Of a stretch of DNA of 64,000 nucleotides, positions 7,657-34,377 are shown in pieces. The DNA is from an uncultured Gammaproteobacteria bacterium. GTDB lineage: Bacteria > Patescibacteriota > Microgenomatia > Daviesbacterales > UBA10151. Position 1 is the stretch's first letter. The number at the start of each line of letters is the position of its first letter. The stretch covers positions 117,873 to 181,872 of the forward strand of contig CAYNFQ010000001.1 in assembly GCA_964396715.1 (NCBI GenBank), written 5' to 3'. Position numbers and translations under genes: made by a program. The notes below the pieces were generated by a model. That model searched no databases and was not told the DNA's origin. It saw only the letters and a program-made list of their open reading frames with translations.

Positions 7657-7738
7657 ACCCTGATACATTATCAAAAAGGTTATGCTTAGTAAAGCTATTG
7701 TTGTAAGCAATTTCACAACTTCAGTTATAATTAGTAAT
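7657..7738. promoter_or_regulatory. Divergent intergenic region between family-A membrane protein gene and GT2 gene; probable bidirectional promoter
   Basis: Only non-coding gap between divergently oriented genes; AT-rich. No consensus elements confirmed. Confidence 0.25.
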
Positions 7739-15007: not shown

Positions 15008-16018
15008 ATGTTAAATTGCGCATTGATAGGATATGGATACTGGGGACCCAATATTGCCAGATCTTTAGCAAGGATTAAAAATGTTAATCTTTCAATAATT
15101 TGTGATAAAGATAAAGAAAAACTTGAAAGTGCAAAACTTTTATATCCTCAGGTTTTGATTACGGATGATTTAGATAAAGTTTTAGAAAATTCCAAAGTTG
15201 ACGCAGTGATCATTGCAACCCCTGCCAGCAGCCATTTTACTTTGGCCTCAAAAGCGCTCAAAAAGGATAAGCACATCTTGATTGAGAAGCCAATTACCAT
15301 AAATACCATTGAGGCTCAAATTTTAATAGAGCTTAATAAAAAGCTAAAAAAGATCGTCATGGCCGGGCATACTTTTGAATATAATCCCACAGTTTTAAAA
15401 ATGAAGGAAATAATAGAGAATGATAGTTTTGGAAAAGTTTACTATATTTATTCAACGAGGGTAAATTTGGGACAAATCAGGGGAGATGTGAATGCCCTTT
15501 GGAATCTGGCACCGCACGATGTCTCGATTTTAAATTTCCTTCTAGGAATTTATCCTGATGAAGTTATGGCATCCGGCGCCAGCTTTTTACAAAAGGGGAT
15601 AGATGATGTAGTTTTTGTAATCCTCCGGTATTCAAACAATGTGTTGGCTAAGATTCATGTCAGTTGGCTTGATCCTGCCAAGGAAAGAAAAATGATAGTG
15701 GTGGGTTCAAAAAAAATGCTTGTTTTTGATGATTTAGACAACGAGATGCCCCTAAAAATTTATGATAAAAGAGCGGATACCGGTGAGATTGCCAAGGGTT
15801 TGTCTACGGAATATAAAATTAAGCTTCACTCCGGGGATATTTATGCTCCTCAAATTGAGAATAAAGAACCACTTCTTGAAGAATTAAAACATTTTTTTGA
15901 TTGCATTGAAAAAAATAAACAGCCTGCCACAGGTTTGAATAACGGTTTAAATGTGGTACGTGTTCTGCAAGCTGCACAGGAATCTTTAAGAGATAATAGT
16001 AAATGGATAAAAATTTAA
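15008..16018 (+). CDS. Gfo/Idh/MocA oxidoreductase, UDP-GlcNAc(A) 3-dehydrogenase (WbpB/WlbA)-like
   Basis: ALIGYGYWGPN Rossmann, EKPI motif; operon context with LbH acetyltransferase and DegT aminotransferase. Confidence 0.7.
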   Translation: MLNCALIGYGYWGPNIARSLARIKNVNLSIICDKDKEKLESAKLLYPQVLITDDLDKVLENSKVDAVIIATPASSHFTLASKALKKDKHILIEKPITINTIEAQILIELNKKLKKIVMAGHTFEYNPTVLKMKEIIENDSFGKVYYIYSTRVNLGQIRGDVNALWNLAPHDVSILNFLLGIYPDEVMASGASFLQKGIDDVVFVILRYSNNVLAKIHVSWLDPAKERKMIVVGSKKMLVFDDLDNEMPLKIYDKRADTGEIAKGLSTEYKIKLHSGDIYAPQIENKEPLLEELKHFFDCIEKNKQPATGLNNGLNVVRVLQAAQESLRDNSKWIKI

Positions 16019-16587
16019 GCCCGGTTTCTATTGATTCAATAATTGGTGCCGATTCCCAAATAGAAGAGTTTGTGGTTATCAAAGGAAATACAACAATCGG
16101 AAAAAACAGTTTAATCCGCTCACATACGGTAATTTATCCGGGGAATAAAATCGGGGATAACTTTAAAACAGGCCATGGAGTTTTAATCAGGGAGAACAAC
16201 ATTATTGGTAAAAACGTAAGTATTGGAAGCCACACAGTTTTAGAACATGACGTGATAATTGGCAGCAGTTGCAGAATTCATTCGGGAGCCTTTATTCCGG
16301 AGTTCACAGCTATAGAAGAAGGAGCGTGGATTGGTCCTGCTGTTGTGATTACAAATGCGAAATATCCAAACTCCCCTACGGCCAAGAATAAATTAAAAGG
16401 GGTCACAATTAAAAAGAATGCAAAGATCGGGGCGGGAGCGGTGATCTTACCAGGTGTTATAATAGGCCAAAATGCTTTGGTTGGGGCGGGAGCTGTTGTG
16501 ATTAAAGATGTTTTGGATGGAGAAGTGGTTGTCGGCAATCCCGCAAGAGTTATCAAAAGAATTTCGGAGATTAAAGATTATGAGTAA
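16003..16587 (+). CDS. Left-handed beta-helix (hexapeptide) N-acetyltransferase, WbpD/WlbB-like
   Basis: Repeated [LIV]G-x4 hexapeptides throughout (IGKNVSIGSHTVLEHDVIIGSSCRI...). Confidence 0.8.
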   Translation: MDKNLSPVSIDSIIGADSQIEEFVVIKGNTTIGKNSLIRSHTVIYPGNKIGDNFKTGHGVLIRENNIIGKNVSIGSHTVLEHDVIIGSSCRIHSGAFIPEFTAIEEGAWIGPAVVITNAKYPNSPTAKNKLKGVTIKKNAKIGAGAVILPGVIIGQNALVGAGAVVIKDVLDGEVVVGNPARVIKRISEIKDYE

Positions 16588-17695
16588 TATAAAAAACGTT
16601 TCACTGATGGATTTACCGGGACAATACCGGCTGGTTGAAAAACAGGTTTTACCCAAGATAAAAGAAGTCTTAAAATCCGGCCGTTATATCATGGGGCCGG
16701 AAGTTACCAAATTTGAGGAAAATTTCGCCAAATATTGTCATGTAAAGCATTGTATTGGTACGAGTTCAGGAACGGAATCATTATATCTTTCGCTGCTCGC
16801 GCTTGGTATAGGAGCAGGGGATGAGGTTATCACGGTCCCTAATACCTTTACAGCTACGGCAGAGGTGATAGTTTTGGTGGGTGCAACTCCTGTTTTTGTT
16901 GATGTTGACCCAAAGACTATGAATTTGGATCCCAAGGCGCTAAAATCTAAAATCACCGGTAAAACCAAAGCGGTAATTCCCGTTCATTTGCACGGTAACC
17001 CGGTTGATCTGGATGAAATTTATAAAATTACCTTTCCCAAAAAGATTGCGGTGATTGAAGATGCGGCCCAGGCCCATGGCGCAAAATATAAAGGCAAAAT
17101 TATCGGATCATCAAAATCTGAATTTATCTGTTTTAGTTTTCATCCTGTCAAAAATTTGGGAGCATTTGGTGATGCGGGAGCAATTGTGACAAACGATTCC
17201 AAATTGGCTGAAATTGTCAGAAAACTTTCCAACCACGGAAGGGAAGATCACTATTTTCATAGCTTGATTGGTACAACCGGCAGGTTGGATGCGCTACAAG
17301 GGGCGATTTTGGATATTAAGCTCAAAAAACTTAACAAATGGACAAGGGCAAAAACAAAATGGGCAGGTTATTATAAAAAGAAGTTGTCTGGTATCTGTAA
17401 ATTTATTGAAACAACAACAGGGGGAGAGAGTGCGCACCATGTAGTAGCGTTATTAACTGACCGCAGAGATGAGTTGTCGACATACCTTAAAAGTTTCGGT
17501 ATTGAAACAGGGGTACATTATCCGACGCCGTTGCATATTCAGCCGGCATACAAATTTTTAGGTCATAAAAAGGGTGATTTCCCGGTTGCCGAAAAATACG
17601 CAGAAGAAACTCTTTCCCTACCTCTTTATCCGCATATGAAAAAAGAGGAAATAGATTTTGTTATCCAAAAAATTCATCAATTTTATGACCAGTAA
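16580..17695 (+). CDS. DegT/DnrJ/EryC1/StrS-family PLP-dependent sugar aminotransferase (WbpE/ArnB-like)
   Basis: Start ATG 16580 preceded by ggaga, 8-nt overlap with upstream stop; family-typical GTESL, DAAQAHG, FSFHPVKNLGAFGDAGA motifs. Confidence 0.85.
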   Translation: MSNIKNVSLMDLPGQYRLVEKQVLPKIKEVLKSGRYIMGPEVTKFEENFAKYCHVKHCIGTSSGTESLYLSLLALGIGAGDEVITVPNTFTATAEVIVLVGATPVFVDVDPKTMNLDPKALKSKITGKTKAVIPVHLHGNPVDLDEIYKITFPKKIAVIEDAAQAHGAKYKGKIIGSSKSEFICFSFHPVKNLGAFGDAGAIVTNDSKLAEIVRKLSNHGREDHYFHSLIGTTGRLDALQGAILDIKLKKLNKWTRAKTKWAGYYKKKLSGICKFIETTTGGESAHHVVALLTDRRDELSTYLKSFGIETGVHYPTPLHIQPAYKFLGHKKGDFPVAEKYAEETLSLPLYPHMKKEEIDFVIQKIHQFYDQ

Positions 17696-18659
17696 AAAAA
17701 TATTAATCACCGGAGGCGGAGGTTTTATCGGCAGTTTTCTGACGGAAAAATTTTACAAAGATAATCAAGTTACTTTATTTGATAATGGCCGCAGAAATTC
17801 TTTCCATTTTCTTGACCAAACAATCCGTAAGCAGGTTAATTTTGTAAGCGGCGATATCAGGGACGACGAGAAAGTTTCAAAGATTGTTAAGGGTCAGGAT
17901 ATCGTTATTCATATGGCGGCAATTGCAGGAGCATCTTTTTATGAAACCGATCCGCTTTTGACTTTGGACGTAAATCTCTTTGGGACTGCCAATCTGCTCA
18001 AAGCTCTTATAAAATCAAAAGCGGAAAAAATAATTACTTTTTCCACCTCGGAAGTTTACGGATCTTTGGCAGCTGATGTTTCAGAAGATGATCCAACCTG
18101 CATTGGTCCCGTATCGGAAGGACGGTGGTCGTATGCTGTTTCTAAAATAGCTTCCGATCATCTGGCCAGGGCGTATTTTAAAAAATATAGCCTGCCGGTT
18201 AATATGATAAGACCTTTTAATATTTACGGGCCAAGGCAGGTAGGGGAAGGGGCTGTCAGTAATATGTTAACTCAAGCAATAAAGACGGGAAAGATTTATG
18301 TTTCAGGAGACGGCGCACAAAAAAGGGCATGGTGTTATATATCAGATATGGTTGAAGCTGTAAAGTTGGCTTTGGAAGAAGATGTCTTGGGAGAGTGTTT
18401 TAATGTGGGTAATTCTGATGCTTATGTTACTATTCTGGAGCTTGCAAAAAAAATCCAAAGTCTTGTTAAAGGCTCGGAGATAATTTTTACCGAAGAGAGA
18501 AAGGTGGAAGTTTTGGATAGAAAACCAAATGTAGACAAGGCCAAAAGAGTGCTCGGCTACTCACCTAAAGTTACACTTGAGCAGGGACTTGGATTGACTT
18601 ATAGATGGTGGACTGACAATATTTTAAATTTTAAAAACTTGGGTAGTTGCGGTTTCTAA
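17685..18659 (+). CDS. NAD-dependent NDP-sugar epimerase/dehydratase (extended SDR)
   Basis: ITGGGGFIGS, YAVSK catalytic YxxxK; start at Met10 overlapping upstream stop. Confidence 0.8.
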   Translation: MTSKKILITGGGGFIGSFLTEKFYKDNQVTLFDNGRRNSFHFLDQTIRKQVNFVSGDIRDDEKVSKIVKGQDIVIHMAAIAGASFYETDPLLTLDVNLFGTANLLKALIKSKAEKIITFSTSEVYGSLAADVSEDDPTCIGPVSEGRWSYAVSKIASDHLARAYFKKYSLPVNMIRPFNIYGPRQVGEGAVSNMLTQAIKTGKIYVSGDGAQKRAWCYISDMVEAVKLALEEDVLGECFNVGNSDAYVTILELAKKIQSLVKGSEIIFTEERKVEVLDRKPNVDKAKRVLGYSPKVTLEQGLGLTYRWWTDNILNFKNLGSCGF

Positions 18660-20138
18660 AAGCAAAGATTTGGAGTTTAAATTTAGCTCCTTGCTATTTG
18701 CATAATCTTTTTTAAGGACCAAAATATTTAAATTATATTTTTTAGCAAGTTCACGGATTGGCTTTTTTATTATTGGAAATATATCATTGATTCTCCCCAG
18801 GTGTCCTGCCTGAATTTCCACCATTACCTTGGCACGGGTATTATATAAGACCATAGTAGTTATTTGATGGGGAATGCAAAGGATCCTGGGTTGGGGTTTT
18901 AATTTATTTAATAATTTAAAAACCTGATTCATATCTTTAGTCATAGTCCTGTTTTTATCGGCAATAATTCCCTTTATTTGTAAAAATATTGTTAAAGCAA
19001 TATTTGTGATAAATATTACAATATAGCCGGGAATAGCAATATTTTTATAAGGGCTCCCACTCAGGGCAAAAAAGGCGATTGCAGAAATTATGGCTGTTGG
19101 GGCAATTGACATTTCCATATATCTTTGCCCCTCCCCTATCGGGGTAAGCGGTTTAATAGTTAGAACTAAAATTGAAAAGAGATAGAAGAAGATTACCCAG
19201 ACACTCATTTTTATCATCAATGGGTCATTTAGTGAATAAAGACTGGTTGAGGCAATAGGAATATGGAAATAATTGGCAATAAGAAGGGCAATTGGGATTA
19301 TTATCCAAAGATTGGTTCCGATTAATGTGACAGGACTAAAAGTGCCCAGCAGTTTGTAAATTTTACCTACCAGATCTATTTTTTTAGGGGGAACCAGTCC
19401 CCTAACCTGATGGGCAAATCGGTAGTGATAATTTTTTACCCAGAAGAGAATATTATCAATGTGACCCCTCAAGATTCTCAGATAGTATCCTTTGGAGATT
19501 GCTATAGCAAGCCCCATTCCGGTAAAAAATAAAAGTAAGTAAAAAGGATTTTTCTCGATGATGGAGAAAAAAATGCTTATAAAAAAAAGCGATTGGAGCG
19601 CAAATTTGTGAGTAAAAAAAAGGATTATCAAAAAAATTAAGCCAATGGTTAAATATAGAAGATTTGGGGCCAGCGTATATAAAATTATCGGATAGAAAGC
19701 CAAAGTAAAGTTTAAATAGCCCATCGACCTTGGGGTTAGGTAGCTATTTTCCAAAATCGTTAGGGGAATTGATGCATATATAGCTTGTGAAAGCAGAGCT
19801 GCTTCCAACCTGTTTGTTAACTGCAGAGTTATTAGAAAGACCAGGTAGTTTTGGATGATATCAAAAAGAGGGGCAATAAACCCCTGTATCTTAAAAACTA
19901 CACCTTTAGGAATAAAGGAGAGCATCCAGGGAAGAGCCGGAGGGTAATTTAAATATCCATCAAGAATGAAACCGCCGGAAATTTTTTCCAAAGGGAGCTT
20001 GTGATTATTTTTCCTGAAGTATTCAGCCTCAATCATCCGGGTCCAAACATCCACCCCAAAATATTTATTAAAAAGCCGAGGGTATGTTTGTAATAAGTAG
20101 CTAAGCAAAGGTATAATCAGTCCCAAGAGAAAAAACAT
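18624..20138 (-). CDS. Polytopic integral membrane protein, possible polysaccharide polymerase or GT-C-like transferase
   Basis: 504 aa, ~12 hydrophobic segments; no recognisable soluble enzyme motif. Confidence 0.5.
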   Translation of the reverse strand: MFFLLGLIIPLLSYLLQTYPRLFNKYFGVDVWTRMIEAEYFRKNNHKLPLEKISGGFILDGYLNYPPALPWMLSFIPKGVVFKIQGFIAPLFDIIQNYLVFLITLQLTNRLEAALLSQAIYASIPLTILENSYLTPRSMGYLNFTLAFYPIILYTLAPNLLYLTIGLIFLIILFFTHKFALQSLFFISIFFSIIEKNPFYLLLFFTGMGLAIAISKGYYLRILRGHIDNILFWVKNYHYRFAHQVRGLVPPKKIDLVGKIYKLLGTFSPVTLIGTNLWIIIPIALLIANYFHIPIASTSLYSLNDPLMIKMSVWVIFFYLFSILVLTIKPLTPIGEGQRYMEMSIAPTAIISAIAFFALSGSPYKNIAIPGYIVIFITNIALTIFLQIKGIIADKNRTMTKDMNQVFKLLNKLKPQPRILCIPHQITTMVLYNTRAKVMVEIQAGHLGRINDIFPIIKKPIRELAKKYNLNILVLKKDYANSKELNLNSKSLLLETATTQVFKI

Positions 20139-20188: not shown

Positions 20189-21106
20189 ATGACAAAAATA
20201 CTTTTTATAGGCGGTCGGGAAAAAGGCTTAAAAACACTTGAAGAATTAATAAAACAAGGAGGGAAGGTCTCATACTCATATATCCTTGAAGAAGATGAAC
20301 ATGAAGTAGAAAAATTTTCAGCCGAGATAGCGGATTTTTGTAAAAAAAGAAATATTGGTTTTACTATAACCAAAAGCATTAAAGGCAAAGAGGAAGAGAT
20401 TAAGAAATTAAATCCGGATTTGATTGTGGTTTCCGGCTGGAGAACCCTGATTCCCCCGTCGGTTATCTATATTCCTAAATTAGGAACTGTTGCCCTGCAT
20501 GAATCTTTGCTTCCAAAATACAGAGGATTTGCCCCAATTAATTGGGCGCTAATAAATGGTGAGAAATATACAGGAGTAAGCCTGTTTTATATAACTGAGG
20601 GTATAGATGATGGGGATATAATTGCCCAGGAGAAAATTGAGATTGGCCCAAACGAAACTGCTTTCGAGATTTATAAAAAATCCATTAATACTTGTGTTGT
20701 TCTGATAAGAAAATACTATCCGCTGATAATTTCCAAAAGGGCTTCCCGGACAAAACAAAATGAAAAGGAAGCGACCTATCTTTGCGTAAGGACTCCGGAT
20801 GATGGAAGAATAAACTGGATGAATTCAGCTGTCAATATACATAACTTGATCCGGGGGCTTTCACATCCTTATCCGGGGGCTTTTTGCTTTCATAAAGGAA
20901 TAAAGATTACTATACAGAAATCGGAAATCCCAAAACAATTAAACTGGGTTGGTAGAATTCCCGGCAGGATTGTTTCTATAAAGAGAGATTTTGGGATGGA
21001 GGTTTTAACCGGAGATGGATCTATTCTAATAACCTCCATAGAGGTCGACAAAAAAATATATAATCCAGCGGATTATTTTAAATCGATCAAAGATATTTTA
21101 GTATGA
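20189..21106 (+). CDS. Formyltransferase (Fmt/ArnA-N-terminal-like), probable sugar N-formyltransferase with C-terminal Fmt-like subdomain
   Basis: Catalytic signature HESLLPKYRGFAPINWALING; 305 aa; polysaccharide context. Confidence 0.8.
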   Translation: MTKILFIGGREKGLKTLEELIKQGGKVSYSYILEEDEHEVEKFSAEIADFCKKRNIGFTITKSIKGKEEEIKKLNPDLIVVSGWRTLIPPSVIYIPKLGTVALHESLLPKYRGFAPINWALINGEKYTGVSLFYITEGIDDGDIIAQEKIEIGPNETAFEIYKKSINTCVVLIRKYYPLIISKRASRTKQNEKEATYLCVRTPDDGRINWMNSAVNIHNLIRGLSHPYPGAFCFHKGIKITIQKSEIPKQLNWVGRIPGRIVSIKRDFGMEVLTGDGSILITSIEVDKKIYNPADYFKSIKDILV

Positions 21107-21654
21107 AGCAAAATATTAAAAAAATAATTTCGGAGATTGACTTAATTTTATCAACTATTTCGGATAAAGAAGTCGAAAGGCTGGTAGATGAAATTATTAA
21201 GGCAAGAAAAATTATCACAATTGGGGCTGGAAGGGTTGGCATGATGGCAAGAGCCTTTGCCATGAGACTGGGGCATTTAGGGCTTCAGTCTTTTACCACA
21301 GCTGATGCGACAATTCCTGCCATAGGGAAAGAGGATTTATTGATAGTCTGTTCGGGTTCAGGTGAAACACAGGCAATATATGATTTAGTTTTAATCGGGA
21401 AAACACACGGTGTTAAAGTTTGCGCAATAACGGCAAGAGTAAATTCTAAAATTGGCAAAGCAGCAGACTTTATTGTCAGTTTGAAAGCTCCGACCAAAGT
21501 GGATAAAGATCCAAAAATAAAATCTATTCAGCCAATGACAACCTTAAATGAACAATGCCTGATGATTTTTTTCGATGCTGTTGTGTTAGAATTAATGCGT
21601 GAACTGAATGAGACAGAGGACAGTATGTGGAGCAGGCATTCCAATTTAGAATGA
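21103..21654 (+). CDS. hxlB: SIS-domain 6-phospho-3-hexuloisomerase (HxlB/PHI)-like sugar-phosphate isomerase
   Basis: GAGRVGMMARAFAMRLGHLG, CSGSGET, C-terminal IQPMTTLNEQ...HSNLE closely match PHI signatures. Confidence 0.75.
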   Translation: MKQNIKKIISEIDLILSTISDKEVERLVDEIIKARKIITIGAGRVGMMARAFAMRLGHLGLQSFTTADATIPAIGKEDLLIVCSGSGETQAIYDLVLIGKTHGVKVCAITARVNSKIGKAADFIVSLKAPTKVDKDPKIKSIQPMTTLNEQCLMIFFDAVVLELMRELNETEDSMWSRHSNLE

Positions 21655-22313
21655 AATATCAACTGGCAGCATCTATCATTTGCGCAAAATTAATCGCTTT
21701 GAAAACACAGTTAAAGCTTCTGGAAAAAGGTAGAATTGACCGCATTCATTTTGACGTAATGGACGGAGTATTTGTGCCAAGATACGGCTTGCCTCCTGAA
21801 ATATTAAAAGAAGTACACCAAGTTACCAATATCCCAGTTACAGTTCATCTGATGGTTTCTGACCCCGAGCCATATATTGAAGTTTTTGCCAAAGCAGGGG
21901 CAGATGCTTTTGTTTTTCATATTGAGCCGGTATTTCATGTAAACAGAGTAATAAAAAAAATTAAAGAGGTCGGTATGAAAGCAGGGGTTGCCTTAAATCC
22001 GGCTACTCCCCTTTCCGTTTTGGATTATGTTTTGCAGGATTTGGATGTAGTAATGCTGATGGTAATAAACCCTGGAATTTTAGGCCATAAATTGATTCCC
22101 GAAATGCTTTTTAAAATTGCCGATTTAAAAAATAAATTAAAAAATTATCCCGATATCAAAATAGAAATTGACGGTGGAGTAACGTCTGAAAGCGCTCCCA
22201 AAATGATTGCAAACGGCGCTGATATCCTGGTCTGCGGAAATTCCAGCATTTTCAAAAACGACTCATCCGTTGATAAGACAATAAAAGAATTTAGAAGGGT
22301 AATAGAAAAATGA
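21651..22313 (+). CDS. rpe: Ribulose-phosphate 3-epimerase family (RPE/allulose-6-P epimerase-like)
   Basis: HFDVMDGVFVP, VHLMV, LNPATPL, DGGV motifs collinear with RPE; ATGA overlap with upstream. Confidence 0.8.
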   Translation: MKYQLAASIICAKLIALKTQLKLLEKGRIDRIHFDVMDGVFVPRYGLPPEILKEVHQVTNIPVTVHLMVSDPEPYIEVFAKAGADAFVFHIEPVFHVNRVIKKIKEVGMKAGVALNPATPLSVLDYVLQDLDVVMLMVINPGILGHKLIPEMLFKIADLKNKLKNYPDIKIEIDGGVTSESAPKMIANGADILVCGNSSIFKNDSSVDKTIKEFRRVIEK

Positions 22314-23902
22314 AAAGCAATTATAAAGTTTTAATTACCACTTCCGGGTTAGGACAAAGGTTGGGGGAGCTGACTAAATATACCAATAAATCTTTAATCA
22401 GGATTGGCAAAAAACCGGCAATCTCCTATATTATAGAAGCTTACCCAAAGGAAACCGAGTTTGTAATCACCGTCGGCCATTTTGGCAACCAGATAAAGGA
22501 TTTTATAAAAATTGCCTACCCAAATTTAAAAGTGACTTTTGCGGAGGTTGATAAATACCAGGGTTCGGGTTCAAGTTTGGGATATTCCATGCTGGCGGCA
22601 AAAAAATATTTGCAGTGTCCTTTCATCTTTCATGCATCAGATACTATAGTAACTGAACCGATTCCGACTCCTGATAAAAATTGGAACGGAGGGTTTAAAG
22701 GAGTTAGTTCTGCCAACTATTCTACTTTTACTGTTTCAAAAAATATGGTGGGTAGCATAAATGATAAAGGAGCCCTGGAGTATGATTTTATCCATATTGG
22801 ACTGGTGGGAATTAAAGATTTTAAGTCTTTTTGGTATAACCTTGAATCGCTATATTTGGGATCTATTTATAAAGATCCCAATGATACTTCATTAAATGAC
22901 TGCAAAGTTTTAAACGTGATGCTTAATGAGGGTAAAATATTCGAGGCAGTAGAGTTTAAAAGCTGGCATGACATAGGTAATGTTGACGTCTTAAATCAGA
23001 TCAGAAAAGAAATAGTGGAGAAGTTTGAAAACCTTGATAAGCCGGGGGAGGCAATTTTTATCTTTCCTAAATTCGTCATTAAATTTTATTTTGATAAAGA
23101 ACTTGTCGAAAAAAAGATTAAAAGGGCAGAAACCCTAAAAGGGCTCGTTCCTGATATTGAGAGATCAATTGGTAATTTTTTCAGATATAAATATGAAGAG
23201 GGGGATCTTTATTCAGAAAGTATTACGGTTTCTGATTTTGAAAGATTTCTGAATTGGTGTAAAGAAAATCTTTGGATTAAGAAAAATATTCTGGTTGATA
23301 AAAAATTCAAAGATCTGTGCGGCAATTTTTATATAGATAAAACAAAACAAAGAGTCCACGATTTTTTGGAGATAACTAAAATAGGAGATACAGAGGAAAT
23401 TATTAACGGAGATAGGGTACCTTCTGTCTCAGAACTTTTGAAACAGATTGATTTTGCTTGGCTATCAGATGGTATCCAGGCTCTTATGCACGGCGATTTA
23501 ATACTGGAGAATATTATCAAGACGAAAGAGGGATATAAGCTTTTGGACTGGAGGCAGGATTTTGGGGGGAATATGGAGATTGGGGATATGTATTATGATC
23601 TTGCCAATTTAAATAAGAACTTTACCTTAAATCATGAATTAGTGAATAAAGGACATTTTTTTATTGAAAAAAAAGGTAAGAATATGAGATGCGACATTCT
23701 GGAAAGCCATAATCTGGTTGAGTGCCAGTTGACTTTGTGGGATTTTATTCAGAAAGAAGGACTTGATCTTAAAAAAGTAAAAGTTTTAACATCTCTTAAA
23801 TGGCTTTCTATGTCCCCCCTGCACCCAACTCCTGTAAACTTTAATTTGTTTTTATATTATTTTGGCAGATTAAATTTGTACAGGTCATTGAAAGGCATAT
23901 AA
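22310..23902 (+). CDS. Bifunctional fusion: N-terminal sugar-phosphate nucleotidyltransferase (LicC/MobA-like) + C-terminal APH/choline-kinase-like phosphotransferase
   Basis: N-terminal LITTSGLGQRLG nucleotidyltransferase motif; C-terminal HGDLILENII...LLDWRQDFG kinase catalytic/Mg-binding motifs. Confidence 0.7.
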   Translation: MKSNYKVLITTSGLGQRLGELTKYTNKSLIRIGKKPAISYIIEAYPKETEFVITVGHFGNQIKDFIKIAYPNLKVTFAEVDKYQGSGSSLGYSMLAAKKYLQCPFIFHASDTIVTEPIPTPDKNWNGGFKGVSSANYSTFTVSKNMVGSINDKGALEYDFIHIGLVGIKDFKSFWYNLESLYLGSIYKDPNDTSLNDCKVLNVMLNEGKIFEAVEFKSWHDIGNVDVLNQIRKEIVEKFENLDKPGEAIFIFPKFVIKFYFDKELVEKKIKRAETLKGLVPDIERSIGNFFRYKYEEGDLYSESITVSDFERFLNWCKENLWIKKNILVDKKFKDLCGNFYIDKTKQRVHDFLEITKIGDTEEIINGDRVPSVSELLKQIDFAWLSDGIQALMHGDLILENIIKTKEGYKLLDWRQDFGGNMEIGDMYYDLANLNKNFTLNHELVNKGHFFIEKKGKNMRCDILESHNLVECQLTLWDFIQKEGLDLKKVKVLTSLKWLSMSPLHPTPVNFNLFLYYFGRLNLYRSLKGI

Positions 23903-24409
23903 ATGAAAAATTTTATTATTGATGTGGATGGTTGTTTAACAACCGGACAGTTTCTATATTCTATCAAGGGTAAGGTGATGAAAGTGTTTGGGCCTGATGA
24001 TGCGGATGCCCTGTCAATACTAAAAAATAAAATCAATATCAGAATGATCTCAGGAGACAAGAGAGGATTTGCTATTACAAAAAAAAGAATAGATGATATG
24101 GGATTTCCTCTTGATCCGGTAAGCACTTTTGAGAGGATTAAGTGGTTTGAGGAAAAATTTCACCTGAATGAGACAATCTATATGGGGGATGGAATATATG
24201 ATAGCCTGGTTTTTGAAAAAGTTGCCTACAGTATTGCTCCGGCAAATGCTTTTTATCTAACCAAAAAGAAAGCTAAATTTGTGACACAAAGCAAAGGTGG
24301 TGAAGGAGCTGTTGCTGAAGCTTGTATACACATAATGGAAAAGTTTTTTGAGCCATTTGATCTTGCATCGCTTGATTTTTCATCAGGATCGGGCACATGG
24401 CAAAAATGA
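23903..24409 (+). CDS. HAD-superfamily phosphatase, KdsC (Kdo-8-P phosphatase)/GmhB-like
   Basis: IIDVDGCLTTG (DxDG), GDGIYD motif IV, ~168 aa typical of KdsC family. Confidence 0.7.
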   Translation: MKNFIIDVDGCLTTGQFLYSIKGKVMKVFGPDDADALSILKNKINIRMISGDKRGFAITKKRIDDMGFPLDPVSTFERIKWFEEKFHLNETIYMGDGIYDSLVFEKVAYSIAPANAFYLTKKKAKFVTQSKGGEGAVAEACIHIMEKFFEPFDLASLDFSSGSGTWQK

Positions 24410-25458
24410 ATTTTCCCCTGGTTTCCGTACTAATACTGACATATAACCGTGCTGATTTACTAAAGACGGCCTTGTCTTCGGCCTTAAAATCAGACTATCC
24501 CAATCTTGAATTTATTGTTGTTGATAATGAATCATCAGAGGACATTTCCGGATTTGTTAAGAAAACATTTCCAAAAGACAAAGTAAAAGTCGTCAGATTA
24601 AAAAAGAATAAAGGTTTAACAGGAGGCTTTAATTTTGGTTTTAAATACTGTCAAGGTAAATATACCATGTTGCTTTGTAATGATACTAAAATAGATAAAA
24701 AAGCCGTAACTTTAATGGTGAAGATAATGGAAAAAGATTCTCAGCTTGGGATGGTAGTGCCAAAAGTTATCCAAATGAGAAAGCCGACGGAGCTTCATAG
24801 CGCGGGAGGTTTTGTGACAATCTATGGCATGCTTTACCACTACGGAGTTTACCAGAATAAGCACGATAAGAAATATCAAAAAATTTATTATGTATTTACG
24901 GGAACAGGAGCCGGTTATTTAATCAAAACATTTGTGGGTAAAACAGTTGGTTTATATGATGATGATTTCTATATAGCATATGACGATATTGACCTTTGCC
25001 ATAAAATATGGCTTTCCGGTTATAAAATAGTTTATTGCCCAAAGGCAGAATTATTGCATTATTGGAGTGCCACCCTGAATGCTTCGGCACCCAAACTTTG
25101 GTACTGGGCGCACAGAAACGGCATTTCATCATATATTCAAAACCTTTCCCTGCCGTATCTTTTTATAATCTTACCTATGCTCTTTCTCTGTTACGGAGTG
25201 CTTTTTGCCGAAAGAATTATCAAAAGAAAGTTTGGTGTGGCATTATCGATCCCAAGCGCTTATATTTGGCACATTTTCAACATAAGAAAGACTCTCAAAA
25301 AAAGAAATATAATACAGCGGGAAATTCGTAAGGTTTCTGATGGGGAAATTTTTAAATATACAATGGTTAACCCCGGTTGGAGGTATTACTTGATTTCTTG
25401 GAATAGGCGCTTTGATGATGTGGAGCTACCGGAGAGAGTTTTGTACTTTGATAAATAA
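24397..25458 (+). CDS. GT2 glycosyltransferase
   Basis: VSVLILTYNRADLL...FIVVDNESSED, DD motif. Confidence 0.75.
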   Translation: MAKMNFPLVSVLILTYNRADLLKTALSSALKSDYPNLEFIVVDNESSEDISGFVKKTFPKDKVKVVRLKKNKGLTGGFNFGFKYCQGKYTMLLCNDTKIDKKAVTLMVKIMEKDSQLGMVVPKVIQMRKPTELHSAGGFVTIYGMLYHYGVYQNKHDKKYQKIYYVFTGTGAGYLIKTFVGKTVGLYDDDFYIAYDDIDLCHKIWLSGYKIVYCPKAELLHYWSATLNASAPKLWYWAHRNGISSYIQNLSLPYLFIILPMLFLCYGVLFAERIIKRKFGVALSIPSAYIWHIFNIRKTLKKRNIIQREIRKVSDGEIFKYTMVNPGWRYYLISWNRRFDDVELPERVLYFDK

Positions 25459-26158
25459 TATTTGTGTCATTCGCGTAGACTTTTTTATAACCCACTTTTG
25501 ATAAAAATCGCCTAATTTCCATCCGTTCTTTACTTTTAGAACGATCTCTTTTAAATGTAAATGATTCCACACATACAAGCTTAGGATTAAAATTTTCCCA
25601 GTTATTGGATTTTAGGACTTCCATCTCAAATCCTTCCGTATCTATTGACAGAAAATCAATTTTTTTAATTCGGAATTTGTGAAGAATTTTATCCAACCTT
25701 TCAACTTTTACCTTAGATTTGTCAATAATTTCAAATCCAATTTTTTGATATTTTATGGCATCAATTTTTGAAAATGTTGAAAGAGTATCAGGAAATAAAT
25801 TATAAAAATCAAGATTTGCCCTTTTTGCGCAGATGCCGATATTAAGATTATAGTCTCTAGGGCGGGCTGTAACAAATTTTTTGTAATTGTGCACATTAGG
25901 TTCAATATTTATTCCCTTCCATCCTCTTTTATAAAATCTGTAGGTATTGCTGAAGCGATAAGGGTCATAGGATCCAATGTCTACATAAAAGCCCGTTTTC
26001 TTATAATTTAGCAGTTTATCGATAATTAAATCTTCACCGTTTTGGCTGAAGGAACCATTAATAATTTGCGTATAAAAAATACTTTTCAGCTCTGAATAGG
26101 CAAAGGAGATAAATTGCCGGAGTCCATATAATTTAATTTTTTTGAAGGCATTAATCAT
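25367..26158 (-). CDS. FkbM-family methyltransferase
   Basis: YVDIGSYDP and IDTEGFEMEVL motifs characteristic of FkbM domain; convergent 92-nt overlap with GT2 3' end. Confidence 0.55.
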   Translation of the reverse strand: MINAFKKIKLYGLRQFISFAYSELKSIFYTQIINGSFSQNGEDLIIDKLLNYKKTGFYVDIGSYDPYRFSNTYRFYKRGWKGINIEPNVHNYKKFVTARPRDYNLNIGICAKRANLDFYNLFPDTLSTFSKIDAIKYQKIGFEIIDKSKVKVERLDKILHKFRIKKIDFLSIDTEGFEMEVLKSNNWENFNPKLVCVESFTFKRDRSKSKERMEIRRFLSKVGYKKVYANDTNIIYQSTKLSPVAPHHQSAYSKKSSNTSNRG

Positions 26159-31491: not shown

Positions 31492-32166
31492 AATGATGCT
31501 TTAAGGAGATTATAGCCTTCCGCATATTTCACGCCTATTTCAGTCCCCCTTATTCCTGCCATCCTTTCTAAATTTTGAGGGCTTCTGGGAAAAGGGTCTT
31601 CCCGTAGCTGAGTTTCGTGGCATTTTAAAAGTTCTATTTTTTCTTTAAAAATTTCAGAAATATCAAAATAAAAATTAGGTTTGAATCCATCCCGGTTAGT
31701 CCAGCTATATGGCTCTTCAGCTTCCAGTATGATTTTTGGCTGATGGCGCAAATTTTTAGGAATTGGTCTAAGAGCCGTGATAGATGCGGAAAAAAGCGCT
31801 CTATGGTCCTGATCAAAGCTGTCCCTAAATGGTATGCAAATTATATCAGGTTCAAACGCTTCAATTTTATCTTCTATATTTTCAATAAGTCTCTTTTGCG
31901 GCACACTGTCAAGTTTCATAAATTCCTCACCTTGAAACATTATTGAGTATTCAAAACCACCATACTTTGAAGCTTTTTTTGCCTCATCAAGACGACTTGC
32001 AGAATTTGTTTTTCCGGTAACCAACTGCCTTGATGAGCCAATAGATCCATACATCACGAATACTCTTGCACCAGTTTTTTTTTGCAAGCATGATCAACCC
32101 ACCACAGCAAATGGCTTCATCATCGGGATGAGGTGCAATAATCAAAATTTTTTTACCCTTAAGCAT
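31488..32166 (-). CDS. PIG-L/LmbE-family N-acetylglucosaminyl deacetylase, interrupted by a frameshift in an A9 homopolymer (plus-strand T9 at 32075-32083)
   Basis: Upstream frame encodes MLKGKKILIIAPHPDDEAICCGGLIMLAKK (PIG-L motif), downstream frame continues TGARVFVMYGS...; removing one A restores one ORF. Confidence 0.6.
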
Positions 32167-32226
32167 ATAAGTTCCAAAATTGCATTATGTAAGCAGAACA
32201 ACTGTATTATACAATATATAGATCTT

Positions 32227-34377
32227 ATGATGGATATTAAAAAAAATTTGAGTCCACTAATTATTTTAATAGTTTGTTTGATCCTTATTTTTGTATGGTT
32301 TAACAAGGGTTTGCTTTTTGCAGGTGGAGAGGGGGGAATCCCTTTTTATAACCTTTCAAAAACTGCAGAGCGCATTTCTTATCTTTGGATAGATGAAGAG
32401 GCTGGTTATCCGGGTGTAGGCAATCTAACAGAAGTCCCTTACTATGCATTGCTTAAGATCCCTTTGCAGTTTGGTGTGCCTTCAAATCTGGTTCAGGCTT
32501 TTCATTTTTTCTTGGTTATGTTTACCGGCGTGGTTTCTGTATATTTTCTGATAAAAATAACCATAGAGGAAGAACTTAAAAAAAATCTTAATTTTTGGGG
32601 CGCAAAATATATATCTTTGATTGGCGCTATCTTCTATTTATTAAATCCTTTTTCCATGTCGCAGGTTTTTGGCAGGAGTTTAAATATTCAATATCTTTCT
32701 TTTGTATTGCTGCCTTTATTTCTCCTGCTGTATATCAGGGGACTTAAAACAAGAAATCTAATATATGGCTTTTTAAGCTTGATACCTTCTTTTATCTTCT
32801 CAGGAGCGTATGGCAGTTTTGGATATATACCAGCACTTTGGTTTCTGGTATTTCTTTATACTGTATTTTACCTTTGGAAAAATAGAAGTAAAAGAGAAAT
32901 TATTTTTGGTATTTTTTTCTTATCTTTTGTTTTTCTCAGCTGGATCATGGTAAATCTTTTTTGGATTATTCCGGTTTTTAAATTAGGGGGACAACAACTG
33001 GCAGCTTCCCTTAATGCGACAGAGGAAAATCTTGGGTCTTTAAGAGGGGTGAGTAAGCATTTTTCTCTGCCTATTCTTATCAGGCTTCTTCATACAGGAT
33101 ATTTCTATGAGGATTTATACGGGATTGTTTATTCAAGTTTATTCTTTGTGATTATAAGTTGGATAATTCCTGTAGTGTCATTTTTTTCATTAACCCTTTT
33201 TAAGAAAGTAACCAGTTTTAAATTCTACCTGACTTTATTTGTAATTTCCCTTTTTATATCTTTAGGTTCTAATTTCCCAACAGGCTGGTTATTTGAATTC
33301 ATATTTGAAGCTGTACCTGCATTTCAAATGTACAGGAATCCTTATGAAAAATTTGGGCTGATTTTTCTTTTAGCCTATACCCCATTTTTTGCATTGGGGA
33401 CTCTGGTTTTGTCAGAAAAATTAGCTGCCTTTTTTAAACATCAACGTTTAAAGTATTTTTGGGTGGTGCTCATTCTTTTTCTGGTGAGTGGCATTTTTGT
33501 TTGGCCAATGTGGAAGGGAATTTTTGCAGGAGGTTACAGGATCAATACCTGGATAAACGTACCTGATTATTATAAAAATGCTAACGATTGGTTAAATCAG
33601 CAGGATGGAGATTTTAGATTGTTGCATCTTCCTTTAATTCCAGGAGATGGCATAAGGTATAAGTGGGATCATCCATATCAAGGCATTGAACCGTCTGAAT
33701 TTTTATTTGATAGAGCATCAATAGCTCAAAATATTCCTTTTAACAAACAATATTACAATGTTTTACTTCAGCGCATTGGGATTTTCCAGCCAAATATTTT
33801 TGGTTCTGATCCTGATTTGACAAATTCGGAATTTAAATCCGAAAAATTAGGGGAAGAGTTAGCGAAATTAAATATTCGATATATAGTTTTACATAATGAT
33901 ATTGATGTTAGTTTCGGTGGTTTCAAAACACCACAAGAAACTGCAGTCTATTTGGCCAAAGATAAAAAAATAATCAAAGTTAAAAGTTTCGGTCAGCTGG
34001 ATATATATGAGGTGGAAATTCCCCAAAATATTCAAATTATTTATTCTCCATCAACTACTTTAATCTATGAAAAAATTAACCCCGCTTTTTATAAAGTAAA
34101 AGTTACTGATGAAGTTAAACCTTTTAATTTGAATTTTCTTATGTCTTACAATTCAAATTGGCACGCTGTTATTGATGGTGAAGTAATACAGGATCATGTA
34201 AAATTATTTTCGTATGGAAATTCCTGGGAAGTTAACAAAACCGGCAGTTTTGAAATAGATTTAGTTTATAAACCGCAGGAACTGGTTAAACAGGGACAAA
34301 TAATTTCAACGTTTTCGTTTATAGTAATATCTCTGCTGATGGTCTGTTACCAAATTATATGGAAAAAAAGAATTTAA
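32227..34377 (+). CDS. Large polytopic membrane protein, family B (N-terminal multi-TM GT-C-like domain + C-terminal extracytoplasmic beta-rich domain)
   Basis: Shares WFxxGLxFxGGxxGxxFxN, RNPYEKFG, LLHLPLIPGDGIRYKWDHPYQGIEPSEF, IRYIVLHND motifs with the giants at 38636, 42468 and 46347. Confidence 0.65.
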   Translation: MMDIKKNLSPLIILIVCLILIFVWFNKGLLFAGGEGGIPFYNLSKTAERISYLWIDEEAGYPGVGNLTEVPYYALLKIPLQFGVPSNLVQAFHFFLVMFTGVVSVYFLIKITIEEELKKNLNFWGAKYISLIGAIFYLLNPFSMSQVFGRSLNIQYLSFVLLPLFLLLYIRGLKTRNLIYGFLSLIPSFIFSGAYGSFGYIPALWFLVFLYTVFYLWKNRSKREIIFGIFFLSFVFLSWIMVNLFWIIPVFKLGGQQLAASLNATEENLGSLRGVSKHFSLPILIRLLHTGYFYEDLYGIVYSSLFFVIISWIIPVVSFFSLTLFKKVTSFKFYLTLFVISLFISLGSNFPTGWLFEFIFEAVPAFQMYRNPYEKFGLIFLLAYTPFFALGTLVLSEKLAAFFKHQRLKYFWVVLILFLVSGIFVWPMWKGIFAGGYRINTWINVPDYYKNANDWLNQQDGDFRLLHLPLIPGDGIRYKWDHPYQGIEPSEFLFDRASIAQNIPFNKQYYNVLLQRIGIFQPNIFGSDPDLTNSEFKSEKLGEELAKLNIRYIVLHNDIDVSFGGFKTPQETAVYLAKDKKIIKVKSFGQLDIYEVEIPQNIQIIYSPSTTLIYEKINPAFYKVKVTDEVKPFNLNFLMSYNSNWHAVIDGEVIQDHVKLFSYGNSWEVNKTGSFEIDLVYKPQELVKQGQIISTFSFIVISLLMVCYQIIWKKRI

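Follow-up and report, generated by a model that had tools for sequence, protein, structure and literature searches.

A four-gene unit in a Candidatus Daviesbacteria glycan locus as a probable form of a conserved, uncharacterised nucleotide-sugar cassette

Within a Candidatus Daviesbacteria genome, four consecutive genes of a large glycan locus probably constitute one form (here type A) of a conserved five-activity nucleotide-sugar pathway making a rare activated sugar for that locus. The cassette is widely conserved and uncharacterised, and is shared, with swapped enzymes, with other bacteria and many large viruses. Very likely it is dedicated to NDP-sugar biosynthesis and starts from a sugar phosphate; fructose-6-P (F6P) is somewhat favoured as the entry metabolite, and NDP-altrose is put forward tentatively as the product. 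All four open reading frames were confirmed on the + strand at positions 21103–24409 of the window (the whole 64,000-nucleotide stretch analysed), and each of the four proteins has its catalytic motifs intact (Table 1). The activities counted are those of an isomerase, an epimerase, a kinase, a nucleotidyltransferase and a phosphatase.

Table 1 Core genes of the cassette and neighbouring genes, in window coordinates.
Feature	Coordinates	Strand	Family evidence
PHI-type SIS sugar-phosphate isomerase (proposed), 183 aa	21103..21654	+	TIGR03127, Pfam SIS
RPE/AlsE-family metal-dependent 3-epimerase (proposed), 220 aa	21651..22313	+	PF00834
NTK, nucleotidyltransferase::APH/choline-kinase-fold kinase fusion, 530 aa	22310..23902	+	
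KdsC/YrbI-like capless HAD phosphatase, 168 aa	23903..24409	+	TIGR01670, PDB matches
GT2 glycosyltransferase (context, not core)	24397..25458	+	PF00535 E 7e-23
FkbM-family methyltransferase (context)	25367..26158	-	PF05050 E 2e-23
ArnA/Fmt-like formyltransferase (FMT)	20189..21106	+	PF00551 + PF02911

An earlier note on this DNA had described all four genes as ATGA-coupled. Such overlaps are present at the PHI/RPE and RPE/NTK junctions, as well as at FMT/PHI, whereas NTK and HAD abut without overlap (TAA followed directly by ATG). The start of the GT2 gene overlaps the HAD stop by 13 nt, and together these junctions indicate a coupled unit that spans, at a minimum, positions 20189 (formyltransferase) to 25458 (GT2 glycosyltransferase), the GT2 enzyme being a candidate consumer of the cassette product. 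The formyltransferase gene lies in the same operon as PHI, yet is absent beside NTK in other loci. The RPE-family gene starts at ATG 21651; GTG 21627, listed by the ORF tool, is not the real start.

The family assignments made in the earlier note were borne out for each protein. The PHI-like SIS protein scored 188.6 bits against TIGR03127 (cut-off 160) and only 16.8 bits against the GmhA model TIGR00441 (cut-off 209), matched the Bacillus subtilis YckF structures (PDB 1m3s/1viv; E 4e-36) and retains the GAGRxG, SGSGET, QPM..L.EQ and H.NLE motifs. It is proposed to act as the ketose-6-P/aldose-6-P isomerase of the pathway, although its PHI equivalog score and full set of PHI motifs suit a 2,3-carbonyl shift better than the proposed 1,2-shift. 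The 2,3-shift in question would convert hexulose-6-P to 3-hexulose-6-P and counts against an aldohexose route. The epimerase belongs to PF00834 (E 5e-61), falls just under the TIGR01163 cut-off (209.4 against 212.6 bits), exceeds that of the RPE subfamily model NF004076 (187 against 165) and stays below that of the AlsE model NF007266 (182.5 against 271); its catalytic H/D/H/D residues are retained. At the beta8 phosphate loop, GADILVCGNSSIF, the protein matches AlsE in length and exceeds E. coli Rpe, as well as five RPEs in the PDB, by one residue. Work by Chan and colleagues in 2008 reportedly found that this loop sets the preference for hexulose-6-P, so that the AlsE-length loop points to a hexulose 6-phosphate substrate, and a role as F6P to allulose-6-P 3-epimerase is proposed. 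The HAD protein scored 74.4 bits against TIGR01670, under the cut-off of 106.95, yet its best PDB matches are 2p9j and KdsC structures, i.e. the KdsC/YrbI subfamily, and its DVDG and GDG..D motifs are conserved; it would remove the distal (6-) phosphate.

The 530-aa protein is, as had been described, a fusion, with a sugar-phosphate nucleotidyltransferase in residues ~1–238 and an APH/choline-kinase-fold kinase in residues ~245–530. The best single match of the N-terminal domain is LicC (identity ~20%), and RmlA/GalU-type sugar-1-P enzymes score level with it. A Pfam scan of NTK gave no match to Choline_kinase, and the MurU model NF045761 reached 26 bits (cut-off 250).

Dozens of unrelated genomes have the gene set beside an NTK homolog, and the order PHI-RPE-NTK-HAD, or a permutation of it, recurs in CPR phyla, Bacteroidota, Limisphaerales and Proteobacteria. 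PHI and/or RPE together with HAD stand beside NTK in 18 of the 22 genome loci whose flank measures 2.5 kb or more, spanning CPR phyla, Bacteroidota, Verrucomicrobiota and Proteobacteria; the separation of PHI/RPE from NTK that the earlier note had considered is thus not the pattern found. The HAD gene adjoins NTK in 31/32 genome loci, and PHI does so in type-A loci. In a second form, type B, which is common on viral contigs, the same NTK is accompanied by a PMI-like cupin (up to 103 bits on PF01050, also matching the D-lyxose isomerase family PF07385), a GatZ-like epimerase of the class-II-aldolase fold and a mini-HAD of ~118 aa, which stand in for PHI, RPE and the KdsC-like HAD by non-orthologous displacement. 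The GatZ-like family retains the GatZ residues D87, H88, E171 and H257 (PMC11907403). Fusions link the parts in both forms: NTK::HAD (P0037, L054), NTK::cupin (P0072/L033), cupin::NTK (L072), GatZ-like::NTK (L067, L069, L070, L089, L149, L151), miniHAD::cupin and GatZ-like::CMT; PHI is also fused to an unknown family, c6 (L025, L026, L028). Synteny across phyla and these Rosetta-stone fusions uphold the view of the four genes as a functional unit, and what had been described as a self-contained four-gene set is really one version of a cassette of five activities that viruses and other lineages also have. Two loci (L027, L033) hold PHI+RPE and the cupin together, which is awkward for strict alternatives. 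A methyltransferase accompanies the cassette in 74/105 loci, and methyltransferases with a C-methyltransferase-type C-terminal domain do so in 40/105.

At 93 NTK positions identity reaches 90% or more in type A and type B alike, and the sole consistent difference is H162 in type A against Y in type B. Such near-identity suggests that both front ends, PHI+RPE and cupin+GatZ-like, probably deliver the same sugar to NTK; in a crude NJ tree of NTK, the cupin+GatZ-like+HAD loci nest among the PHI+RPE loci. The canonical reactions of PHI, AlsE and PMI take or make F6P. The same is true of GatZ (PMC11907403). The exchange of front ends around an unchanged NTK, together with the AlsE-type loop, points towards an aldohexose derived from F6P.

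We infer all substrates and products, as well as the step order and the nucleotide, from family, fold, motifs, synteny, fusions and front-end exchange. In the proposed scheme, the AlsE-like enzyme would 3-epimerise F6P to D-allulose-6-P, which the PHI-type enzyme would isomerise to an aldohexose-6-P, with D-altrose-6-P as the simplest candidate and D-allose-6-P as the alternative. The APH-fold kinase and KdsC-like HAD would then shift the phosphate from C6 to C1, either kinase first (cf. GmhA/HddA/GmhB/HddC) or phosphatase first (cf. MupP/AmgK/MurU). Either order is conceivable, since free sugars are the substrates of the APH-fold anomeric sugar kinases known to us, whereas bisphosphates are those of capless HADs such as GmhB. 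The N-terminal domain of NTK would finally make the NDP-sugar, to be consumed by neighbouring glycosyltransferases and often methylated. Altrose-6-P or allose-6-P would be the only two-step product needing both enzymes of both front ends, and D-altrose-6-P the simplest within reach of both: type A would run from F6P over allulose-6-P to altrose-6-P, and type B from F6P to Man-6-P followed by a retro-aldol flip of C3. To our knowledge, GatZ enzymes are documented solely as ketose-6-P 4-epimerases (F6P to tagatose-6-P) and not as aldose 3-epimerases, and we know of no altrose- or allose-containing glycan from these organisms. The comparative evidence thus supports the earlier reading in so far as the route would start at a central ketose phosphate and end at a nucleotide-activated donor, while favouring neither of the products suggested with it (NDP-ketose; phospho-head group of LicA/LicC type).

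An NDP-ketose, which we regard as unlikely, would arise if the HAD freed a rare ketose from its phosphate and the kinase then phosphorylated the anomeric hydroxyl of the ketofuranose for nucleotidyl transfer. Candidate ketose phosphates are allulose-6-P, 3-hexulose-6-P (e.g. D-ribo- or D-lyxo-) and tagatose-6-P. The PHI score and motifs speak for such a route, as do the frequent C-methyltransferase-type partners; PHI and AlsE-type enzymes have a 2,3-enediol intermediate in common, so 3-hexulose-6-P would keep both in canonical register, and F6P→Hu6P→4-epi-Hu6P (type A) and F6P→T6P→3-hexulose (type B) would also converge on one product. Epimerising 3-hexulose-6-P would, however, need RPE geometry, to which the AlsE-length loop is unsuited; the cupin is clearly PMI-like, an aldose-ketose isomerase; the isomerase would be redundant in a route ending at allulose-6-P or tagatose-6-P; and neither an NDP-3-hexulose nor an anomeric kinase that uses ketoses is known to us. 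Slightly less likely still is the same logic at another chain length, either ribulose-5-P to xylulose-5-P to D-lyxose-5-P or D-xylose-5-P and an NDP-pentofuranose, or sedoheptulose-7-P to D-glycero-D-altro-heptose-7-P and an NDP-heptose. The heptose version would amount to a non-orthologous GmhA/HddA/GmhB/HddC pathway with an extra epimerase. Judged by NCBI models, the RPE-like protein comes close to being an RPE, PHI geometry (carbonyl three to four carbons from the phosphate carbon) would match pentulose-5-P/aldopentose-5-P isomerisation, the cupin matches the D-lyxose isomerase family, and KdsC-type HADs prefer long sugar phosphates. The beta8 loop is nevertheless of AlsE and not RPE length, and PMI, GatZ, PHI and AlsE are hexose-6-P enzymes throughout; that non-CPR hosts such as Chitinophaga should have their own RPE, so that a plain copy would add nothing, is a weak argument, as glycan loci often hold duplicates of supply genes.

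Some NTK members carry the JGI name 'choline kinase', as would suit a kinase acting on a non-anomeric alcohol (a small alcohol or a sugar hydroxyl) and a nucleotidyltransferase making a CDP-linked phospho-donor. Models for the donor are CDP-choline, CDP-ribitol and CDP-6-fructose, for use in a teichoic-acid-like polymer or a decoration attached by phosphodiester linkage. This is improbable given the remote LicC matches, equalled by RmlA/GalU-type enzymes, and the unmatched Choline_kinase model; LicB, LicD and CDP-alcohol transferase families are absent among the Pfam-scanned window ORFs, and NTK is constantly accompanied by a phosphatase and two sugar-phosphate enzymes, in some cases fused to it. 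A phosphatase paired with a kinase makes sense only with a change of phosphate position. Finally, PHI and RPE could belong to central metabolism (RuMP or pentose-phosphate pathway) and lie by chance beside an unrelated nucleotidyltransferase-kinase and phosphatase; CPR genomes are compact, with housekeeping genes at times interspersed among other loci, and NCBI models would call the two genes PHI and RPE. Synteny across at least four phyla and the fusions effectively refute such a coincidence, against which the ATGA overlaps, the lack of an HPS partner among the scanned window ORFs and the substitution of an analogous enzyme pair around the same NTK also speak.

As the earlier note had stated, no canonical pathway was found to cover the set, nor were any characterised homolog of the cassette or paper on it. 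The NDP-heptose pathway (GmhA, HddA/HldE, GmhB, HddC/HldE) has no orthologous protein in the cassette, whose isomerase is a PHI-type SIS protein and not GmhA, whose kinase is of APH fold and not GHMP or ribokinase, whose phosphatase is KdsC-type or a mini-HAD and not GmhB, and which has an additional epimerase and probably a hexose substrate. MurNAc salvage in Pseudomonas by MupP (HAD phosphatase), AmgK (APH-fold anomeric kinase) and MurU (nucleotidyltransferase) proceeds without isomerase or epimerase and with separate proteins, whereas kinase and nucleotidyltransferase are fused in the cassette. LicC/LicA and LicCA fusions (CDP-choline) share both folds, and their order, with NTK, but the cassette differs in its distant sequence, its lack of licB/licD context in the scanned part of the window and its sugar-phosphate partners. 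The 6-phosphate in the angustmycin route is removed late, after anomeric activation, by a HAD phosphatase. E. coli D-allose catabolism (AlsE + RpiB) and angustmycin AgmD resemble the cassette in an RPE-family enzyme with a longer beta8 loop interconverting F6P and allulose-6-P, and in an isomerase connecting allulose-6-P with an aldohexose-6-P. The cassette would run in the biosynthetic direction, has a SIS/PHI-type isomerase instead of RpiB and an epimerase short of the AlsE cut-off, and would activate its sugar by kinase and nucleotidyltransferase, not by a PRPP-synthetase-like enzyme. The RuMP enzyme PHI (HxlB), which works with HPS, is matched by the SIS protein in equivalog model and motifs; the cassette version is found in a glycan operon of non-methylotrophs and is exchangeable with a PMI-like cupin.

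The four genes that the earlier note had placed at 21103-24409 were borne out by the ORF listing, all on the same strand. They encode a 6-phospho-3-hexuloisomerase (PHI)-like SIS protein, a ribulose-phosphate 3-epimerase (RPE)-like protein, a 530-aa fusion of an N-terminal nucleotidyltransferase and a kinase of the APH/choline-kinase fold (NTK), and a KdsC-like HAD phosphatase. ATGA overlaps were found at three junctions (formyltransferase/PHI, PHI/RPE and RPE/NTK), NTK and the HAD gene abut (TAA followed by ATG), and a 13-nt overlap joins the HAD gene to the GT2 gene that follows. For the RPE-family gene the ORF listing gave a GTG start at 21627, but the most probable start is the ATG at 21651, which gives the ATGA overlap with PHI. 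A hypothetical protein of Candidatus Daviesbacteria bacterium, a CPR member, matches NTK with 100% identity. Pfam scans of 29 window ORFs, all inside 5314-38000, show the cassette surroundings to be one large glycan locus, encoding GT2, GT4 and GT-C glycosyltransferases, a DegT aminotransferase, SDR enzymes, a GFO/MocA oxidoreductase, an acetyltransferase, two formyltransferases, a UDP-GlcNAc 2-epimerase, a CapD-like dehydratase and several methyltransferases; LicB, LicD, KdsA, KdsB and 3-hexulose-6-phosphate synthase (HPS)-type proteins were not found among these 29 ORFs. An Rfam scan of the whole window gave no match.

Several neighbors deserve mention in their own right. The ArnA/Fmt-like formyltransferase gene, ATGA-coupled to the PHI gene, and the genes upstream of it appear to form a distinct N-acyl/N-formyl amino-sugar pathway within the glycan locus. 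Divergent from the operon, a 504-aa multi-pass membrane protein without a Pfam match, which has a homolog (62% identity) in the related Daviesbacteria contig L001, could act as a polymerase or belong to the GT-C-type enzymes. Elsewhere in the window, a bona fide NDP-sugar C-methyltransferase of the TylC3/TcaB9 type (PF08421, PF13489 and PF08484, 200 bits) adjoins an SDR and a GFO/MocA oxidoreductase, a gene group that points to a branched-chain sugar route. A 749-aa protein with an AftD-type GT-C arabinofuranosyltransferase N-terminal domain (PF11847) is a hint that one step in this CPR glycan locus depends on a polyprenyl-phosphate sugar, and an 877-aa ORF had no Pfam match at E≤0.001.

Coordinates of the cassette, of neighboring features in the window and of recurrent partners in compared loci (L numbers denote loci of NTK homologs)
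Feature	Sequence	Coordinates	Strand
877-aa ORF	window	5314-7947	-
SDR and GFO/MocA oxidoreductase	window	8446-9393, 9393-10451	
NDP-sugar C-methyltransferase	window	10455-11708	-
GFO/MocA oxidoreductase, hexapeptide acetyltransferase, DegT aminotransferase, SDR	window	15008-18659	
504-aa membrane protein	window	18624-20138	-
ArnA/Fmt-like formyltransferase	window	20189-21106	+
PHI-like SIS protein	window	21103-21654	+
RPE-like protein	window	21651-22313	+
NTK	window	22310-23902	+
KdsC-like HAD	window	23903-24409	+
FkbM methyltransferase	window	25367-26158	
749-aa AftD-type protein	window	32128-34377	+
c6 protein	L002	499-1713	
c6 protein	L025	7570-8997	
c6 protein	L026	7518-8945	
c6 protein	L028	7496-9289	
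NTase2	L014	9995-10723	
NTase2	L018	13884-	
NTase2	L024	8438-	
NTase2	L025	11448-	
NTase2	L026	11489-	
NTase2	L028	9998-	
NTase2	L065	10097-	
Second APH-fold kinase, HAD-like protein, SDR, GHMP kinase	L172	2710-3549, 3509-4567, 11294-12346	

The individual cassette proteins were compared to curated families and structures. NTK combines a LicC-like nucleotidyltransferase fold with a ChoK/APH-fold kinase; its structure was predicted with high confidence (pLDDT 91.3), the catalytic residues of both domains are invariant across the family, and the choline-kinase signature PF01633 gave no match. The HAD protein has a capless KdsC/YrbI-type fold with motifs I-IV (DVDG...GDG..D) conserved and had 2p9j and KdsC structures as its best PDB matches; it scored under the KdsC cut-offs (TIGR01670, 74.4 bits vs 106.95; NF007019, 58.3 vs 208), and the scanned window ORFs provide no KdsA/KdsB context for it. 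The PHI-like protein exceeded the equivalog cut-off of TIGR03127 (188.6 bits vs 160), matched YckF from B. subtilis (PDB 1m3s/1viv) with an E-value of 4e-36 and keeps the full set of conserved PHI motifs. No HPS/OMPdecase-type partner was found among the 29 ORFs, and in related loci the partner of the PHI-like protein is an RPE-family protein.

The RPE-like protein matched PF00834 (E 5e-61) and retains the catalytic His/Asp/His/Asp (metal and acid/base residues) as well as the conserved HFDVMDG, VHLM and IDGG motifs. It narrowly misses the RPE equivalog cut-off (TIGR01163, 209.4 bits vs 212.6) and lies far under that of AlsE (182.5 bits vs 271), and no als genes were found nearby among the scanned window ORFs. 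When aligned with E. coli Rpe, E. coli AlsE and five RPE crystal-structure sequences, it lacked the canonical short β8 phosphate loop of RPE (G-S-A-I/V-F): its loop exceeds those of E. coli Rpe and all five PDB RPEs by one residue and equals that of AlsE in length (GADILVCGNSSIF in the RPE-like protein vs GADVFIVGTSGLF in AlsE). A functional meaning is given to this length by a result that Chan, Gerlt and co-workers reportedly published in Biochemistry in 2008, where removal of one residue from the β8 loop gave an AlsE preferring ribulose-5-phosphate.

A scan of one genome per species yielded 32 NTK loci, in 31 of which the HAD gene adjoins NTK. The PHI-RPE-NTK-HAD set, in this or a permuted order, was found again in many CPR phyla, in Sediminibacterium, Chitinophaga and Sphingobacteriaceae, in Limisphaerales, and in MAGs of Alpha- and Gammaproteobacteria. 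Adding metagenome and IMG/VR scans brought the collection to 105 loci in which NTK is complete and flanked on each side by 2.5 kb or more. The genome loci within this set have PHI and/or RPE plus HAD beside NTK in 18 cases out of 22; the PHI/RPE genes are thus not separated from the nucleotidyltransferase-kinase, and the adjacency that had been read as a module from the window alone is not coincidental. The NTK family comprises 585 representatives of 50%-identity clusters at E≤1e-30, and its hosts are almost all uncultured (CPR bacteria, Bacteroidota and Verrucomicrobiota MAGs, and the viruses of over 60 contigs, giant-virus MAGs among them). In a plasmid collection from cultured bacteria no family member was found; the only matches were remote nucleotidyltransferases from Haloferax, at 21% query coverage. 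A stand-alone paralog (~240 aa) of the N-terminal NTK domain, NTase2, lies near the cassette in several loci, and NTK itself is only ~400 aa in loci L024-L026; the nucleotidyltransferase function may be split or duplicated there.

Loci without PHI/RPE hold three other proteins: a ~110-aa cupin of the type-II mannose-6-phosphate-isomerase (PMI) kind (PF01050, up to 103 bits), a ~330-aa class-II-aldolase/GatZ-like protein and a minimal HAD phosphatase of ~118 aa (mini-HAD). We refer to this arrangement as type B and to that with PHI, RPE and KdsC-like HAD as type A. In GatZ, D87, H88, E171 and H257 have been assigned to the Zn-dependent retro-aldol C4-epimerisation of fructose-6-phosphate (PMC11907403), and all four are retained in the GatZ-like family (n = 100). 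PDB sequence searches with the GatZ-like partners and with CMT-like methyltransferase partners gave remote matches only. The c34 family was rejected as the phosphatase missing from type B, being a TylF-like methyltransferase, with the mini-HAD filling this role; nor is the cupin a simple stand-in for PHI alone, as both are present in loci L027 and L033. With the type-B replacements, every cassette encodes a predicted isomerase, epimerase, kinase, nucleotidyltransferase and phosphatase, and three of these five predicted functions would come from unrelated folds in the two types. Fusions connect all parts of the cassette (NTK::HAD, NTK::cupin, GatZ-like::NTK, cupin::NTK, mini-HAD::cupin, GatZ-like::CMT and c6::PHI), and a RuMP or pentose-phosphate housekeeping reading of PHI and RPE was rejected, with both synteny and fusions speaking against it.

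Type B prevails on viral contigs, identified as viral from their IMG/VR membership, their names or, in one case, a GenBank label, with both the cupin and the GatZ-like gene in 60 of 62. Some carrier contigs bear the name GVMAG (giant-virus MAG), carrier lengths run up to 410 kb, and the cassette is also found on a GenBank marine virus labelled Caudoviricetes (L172; MH319741.1, 9013-24551). The viral loci (L091-L170 from IMG/VR, and L172) nearly always show the form miniHAD-cupin-NTK-GatZ-like. On the marine virus contig the further genes near the cassette that are listed in the table make up a dense sugar-activation locus. The GatZ-like part of one fusion protein (P0129) is annotated by JGI as 'fructose/tagatose bisphosphate aldolase', a label that could wrongly pass for a viral glycolysis gene.

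An alignment of 31 type-A and 85 type-B NTKs contained 93 positions where one and the same residue is conserved to 90% or more in both, and the sole consistent difference was position 162 (H in type A, Y in type B). In a crude neighbor-joining tree of NTK, type B with mini-HAD was basal and the loci linked to KdsC-like HAD formed a derived clade, within which PHI+RPE loci were interleaved with cupin+GatZ-like+HAD loci. There is good evidence at the sequence level that the NTK substrate is common to both types, in which case the two front ends would be functionally equivalent.

Fructose-6-phosphate is a canonical substrate or product of PHI, AlsE, PMI and GatZ, and is therefore the likely entry point. 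From a listing of two-step products requiring both enzymes of each front end, we infer that just two solutions fit both types, an aldohexose-6-phosphate or 3-hexulose-6-phosphate. For the former, type A would convert fructose-6-phosphate to allulose-6-phosphate (C3 epimerase) and then to altrose- or allose-6-phosphate (1,2-isomerase), and type B would form mannose-6-phosphate (PMI) and from it altrose-6-phosphate by a retro-aldol flip of the β-carbon, C3 in the aldose. This solution agrees with the AlsE length of the loop and with a cupin that is clearly PMI-like, and would yield an aldose suited to the kinase, phosphatase and nucleotidyltransferase sequence; D-altrose-6-phosphate, leading to NDP-D-altrose, is favored on these grounds, if as an exact identification still a rather unlikely one. 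With 3-hexulose-6-phosphate as the common product, a live alternative, type A would take fructose-6-phosphate to 3-hexulose-6-phosphate and on to its 4-epimer, and type B would reach the same 3-hexulose through tagatose-6-phosphate. This route has in its favor the strong PHI signature and the reaction documented for GatZ, but it is at odds with the AlsE-length β8 loop, and we know of no activation chemistry for a 3-hexulose end product, which counts against it. Allose, a pentose (lyxose or xylose) and a heptose version are likewise live alternatives. Talose-6-phosphate, formed by the GatZ reaction and then a PMI-type step, was rejected as the common product, as a C3 epimerase and one isomerase cannot reach it from fructose-6-phosphate.

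Two precedents bear on the order of the later steps. In the NDP-heptose pathway, phosphorylation by the kinase comes before removal of the distal phosphate by a capless HAD (GmhB); MurNAc recycling runs the other way round, with a HAD (MupP) preceding an APH-fold kinase (AmgK), which phosphorylates the free sugar. The type-A and type-B phosphatases are both capless, so the evidence leans toward a large phosphatase substrate, a bisphosphate or an NDP-sugar-6-phosphate; pulling against this, the APH-fold sugar kinases known to us all act on free sugars.

The cassette sugar is probably methylated, since 74 of the 105 loci encode a methyltransferase no more than 6 kb from NTK, either CMT (Methyltransf_23 plus a C-methyltransferase-type C-terminal domain), TylF-like or, as near the cassette in the window, FkbM. 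In loci L155, L158, L159 and L164 the GatZ-like protein is fused to a CMT-type methyltransferase, which connects methylation closely with the first sugar-phosphate reactions; methylation may precede nucleotide activation. Recurrent transferase candidates are a GT90-like protein and c6, a family of ~380-400 aa when unfused, without a Pfam or NCBIfam match and beside the cassette in 15/105 loci. Three contigs, two from Saccharibacteria and one from the Patescibacteria group, encode c6 fused to a PHI-like domain, and c6 is a candidate for a dedicated transferase or an extra pathway enzyme.

Taken as a whole, the cassette might, as a tentative but quite possible reading, make a never-described nucleotide sugar (NDP-D-altrose, NDP-D-allose or even NDP-3-hexulose) via two new enzyme functions and an APH-fold anomeric kinase fused to its nucleotidyltransferase, in a pathway common to bacteria and viruses. 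If true, the new functions would be a PHI-fold allulose-6-phosphate/aldohexose-6-phosphate isomerase and a GatZ-fold aldose-6-phosphate 3-epimerase, the pathway would span CPR and other bacteria as well as giant and marine viruses, unrelated enzymes having taken over three of the five steps, and a rare, often methylated surface sugar would be common in these little-studied groups. The NTK cassette presents itself as a large uncharacterised nucleotide-sugar pathway family and an apparently clean case of non-orthologous displacement around a conserved core enzyme, with concrete, testable substrate and product predictions for five enzyme families. It also calls for caution toward RuMP, pentose-phosphate and glycolysis labels when PHI, RPE and 'fructose/tagatose-bisphosphate aldolase' genes of CPR bacteria and giant viruses enter metabolic reconstructions, and the enzymes could find use in rare-sugar (allulose, allose, altrose) and sugar-nucleotide synthesis.

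No description of the cassette gene set was found in the literature, and the cassette fell short of the curated cut-offs or lacked the context for each of the NDP-heptose, MupP/AmgK/MurU and LicC/LicA systems. The NDP-heptose pathway (GmhA/HddA/GmhB/HddC) shows no orthology (gmhA TIGR00441, 16.8 bits vs 209; HddC NF049965, 19.6 vs 300), and its phosphatase is GmhB whereas the cassette HAD is KdsC-like. For MurNAc salvage by AmgK/MurU/MupP, MurU NF045761 reached 26.2 bits in the cassette against a cut-off of 250. LicC/LicA (CDP-choline) has folds in common with NTK, but the choline-kinase signature and, among the scanned window ORFs, the LicB/LicD context are missing here. In predicted function the cassette would resemble the NDP-heptose and MupP/AmgK/MurU routes. 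Proteins of the isomerase, kinase, phosphatase and nucleotidyltransferase classes are all present in it and co-inherited, with their activities as putative ones, and it would belong to a known kind of system, nucleotide-sugar biosynthesis, with a possibly new product.
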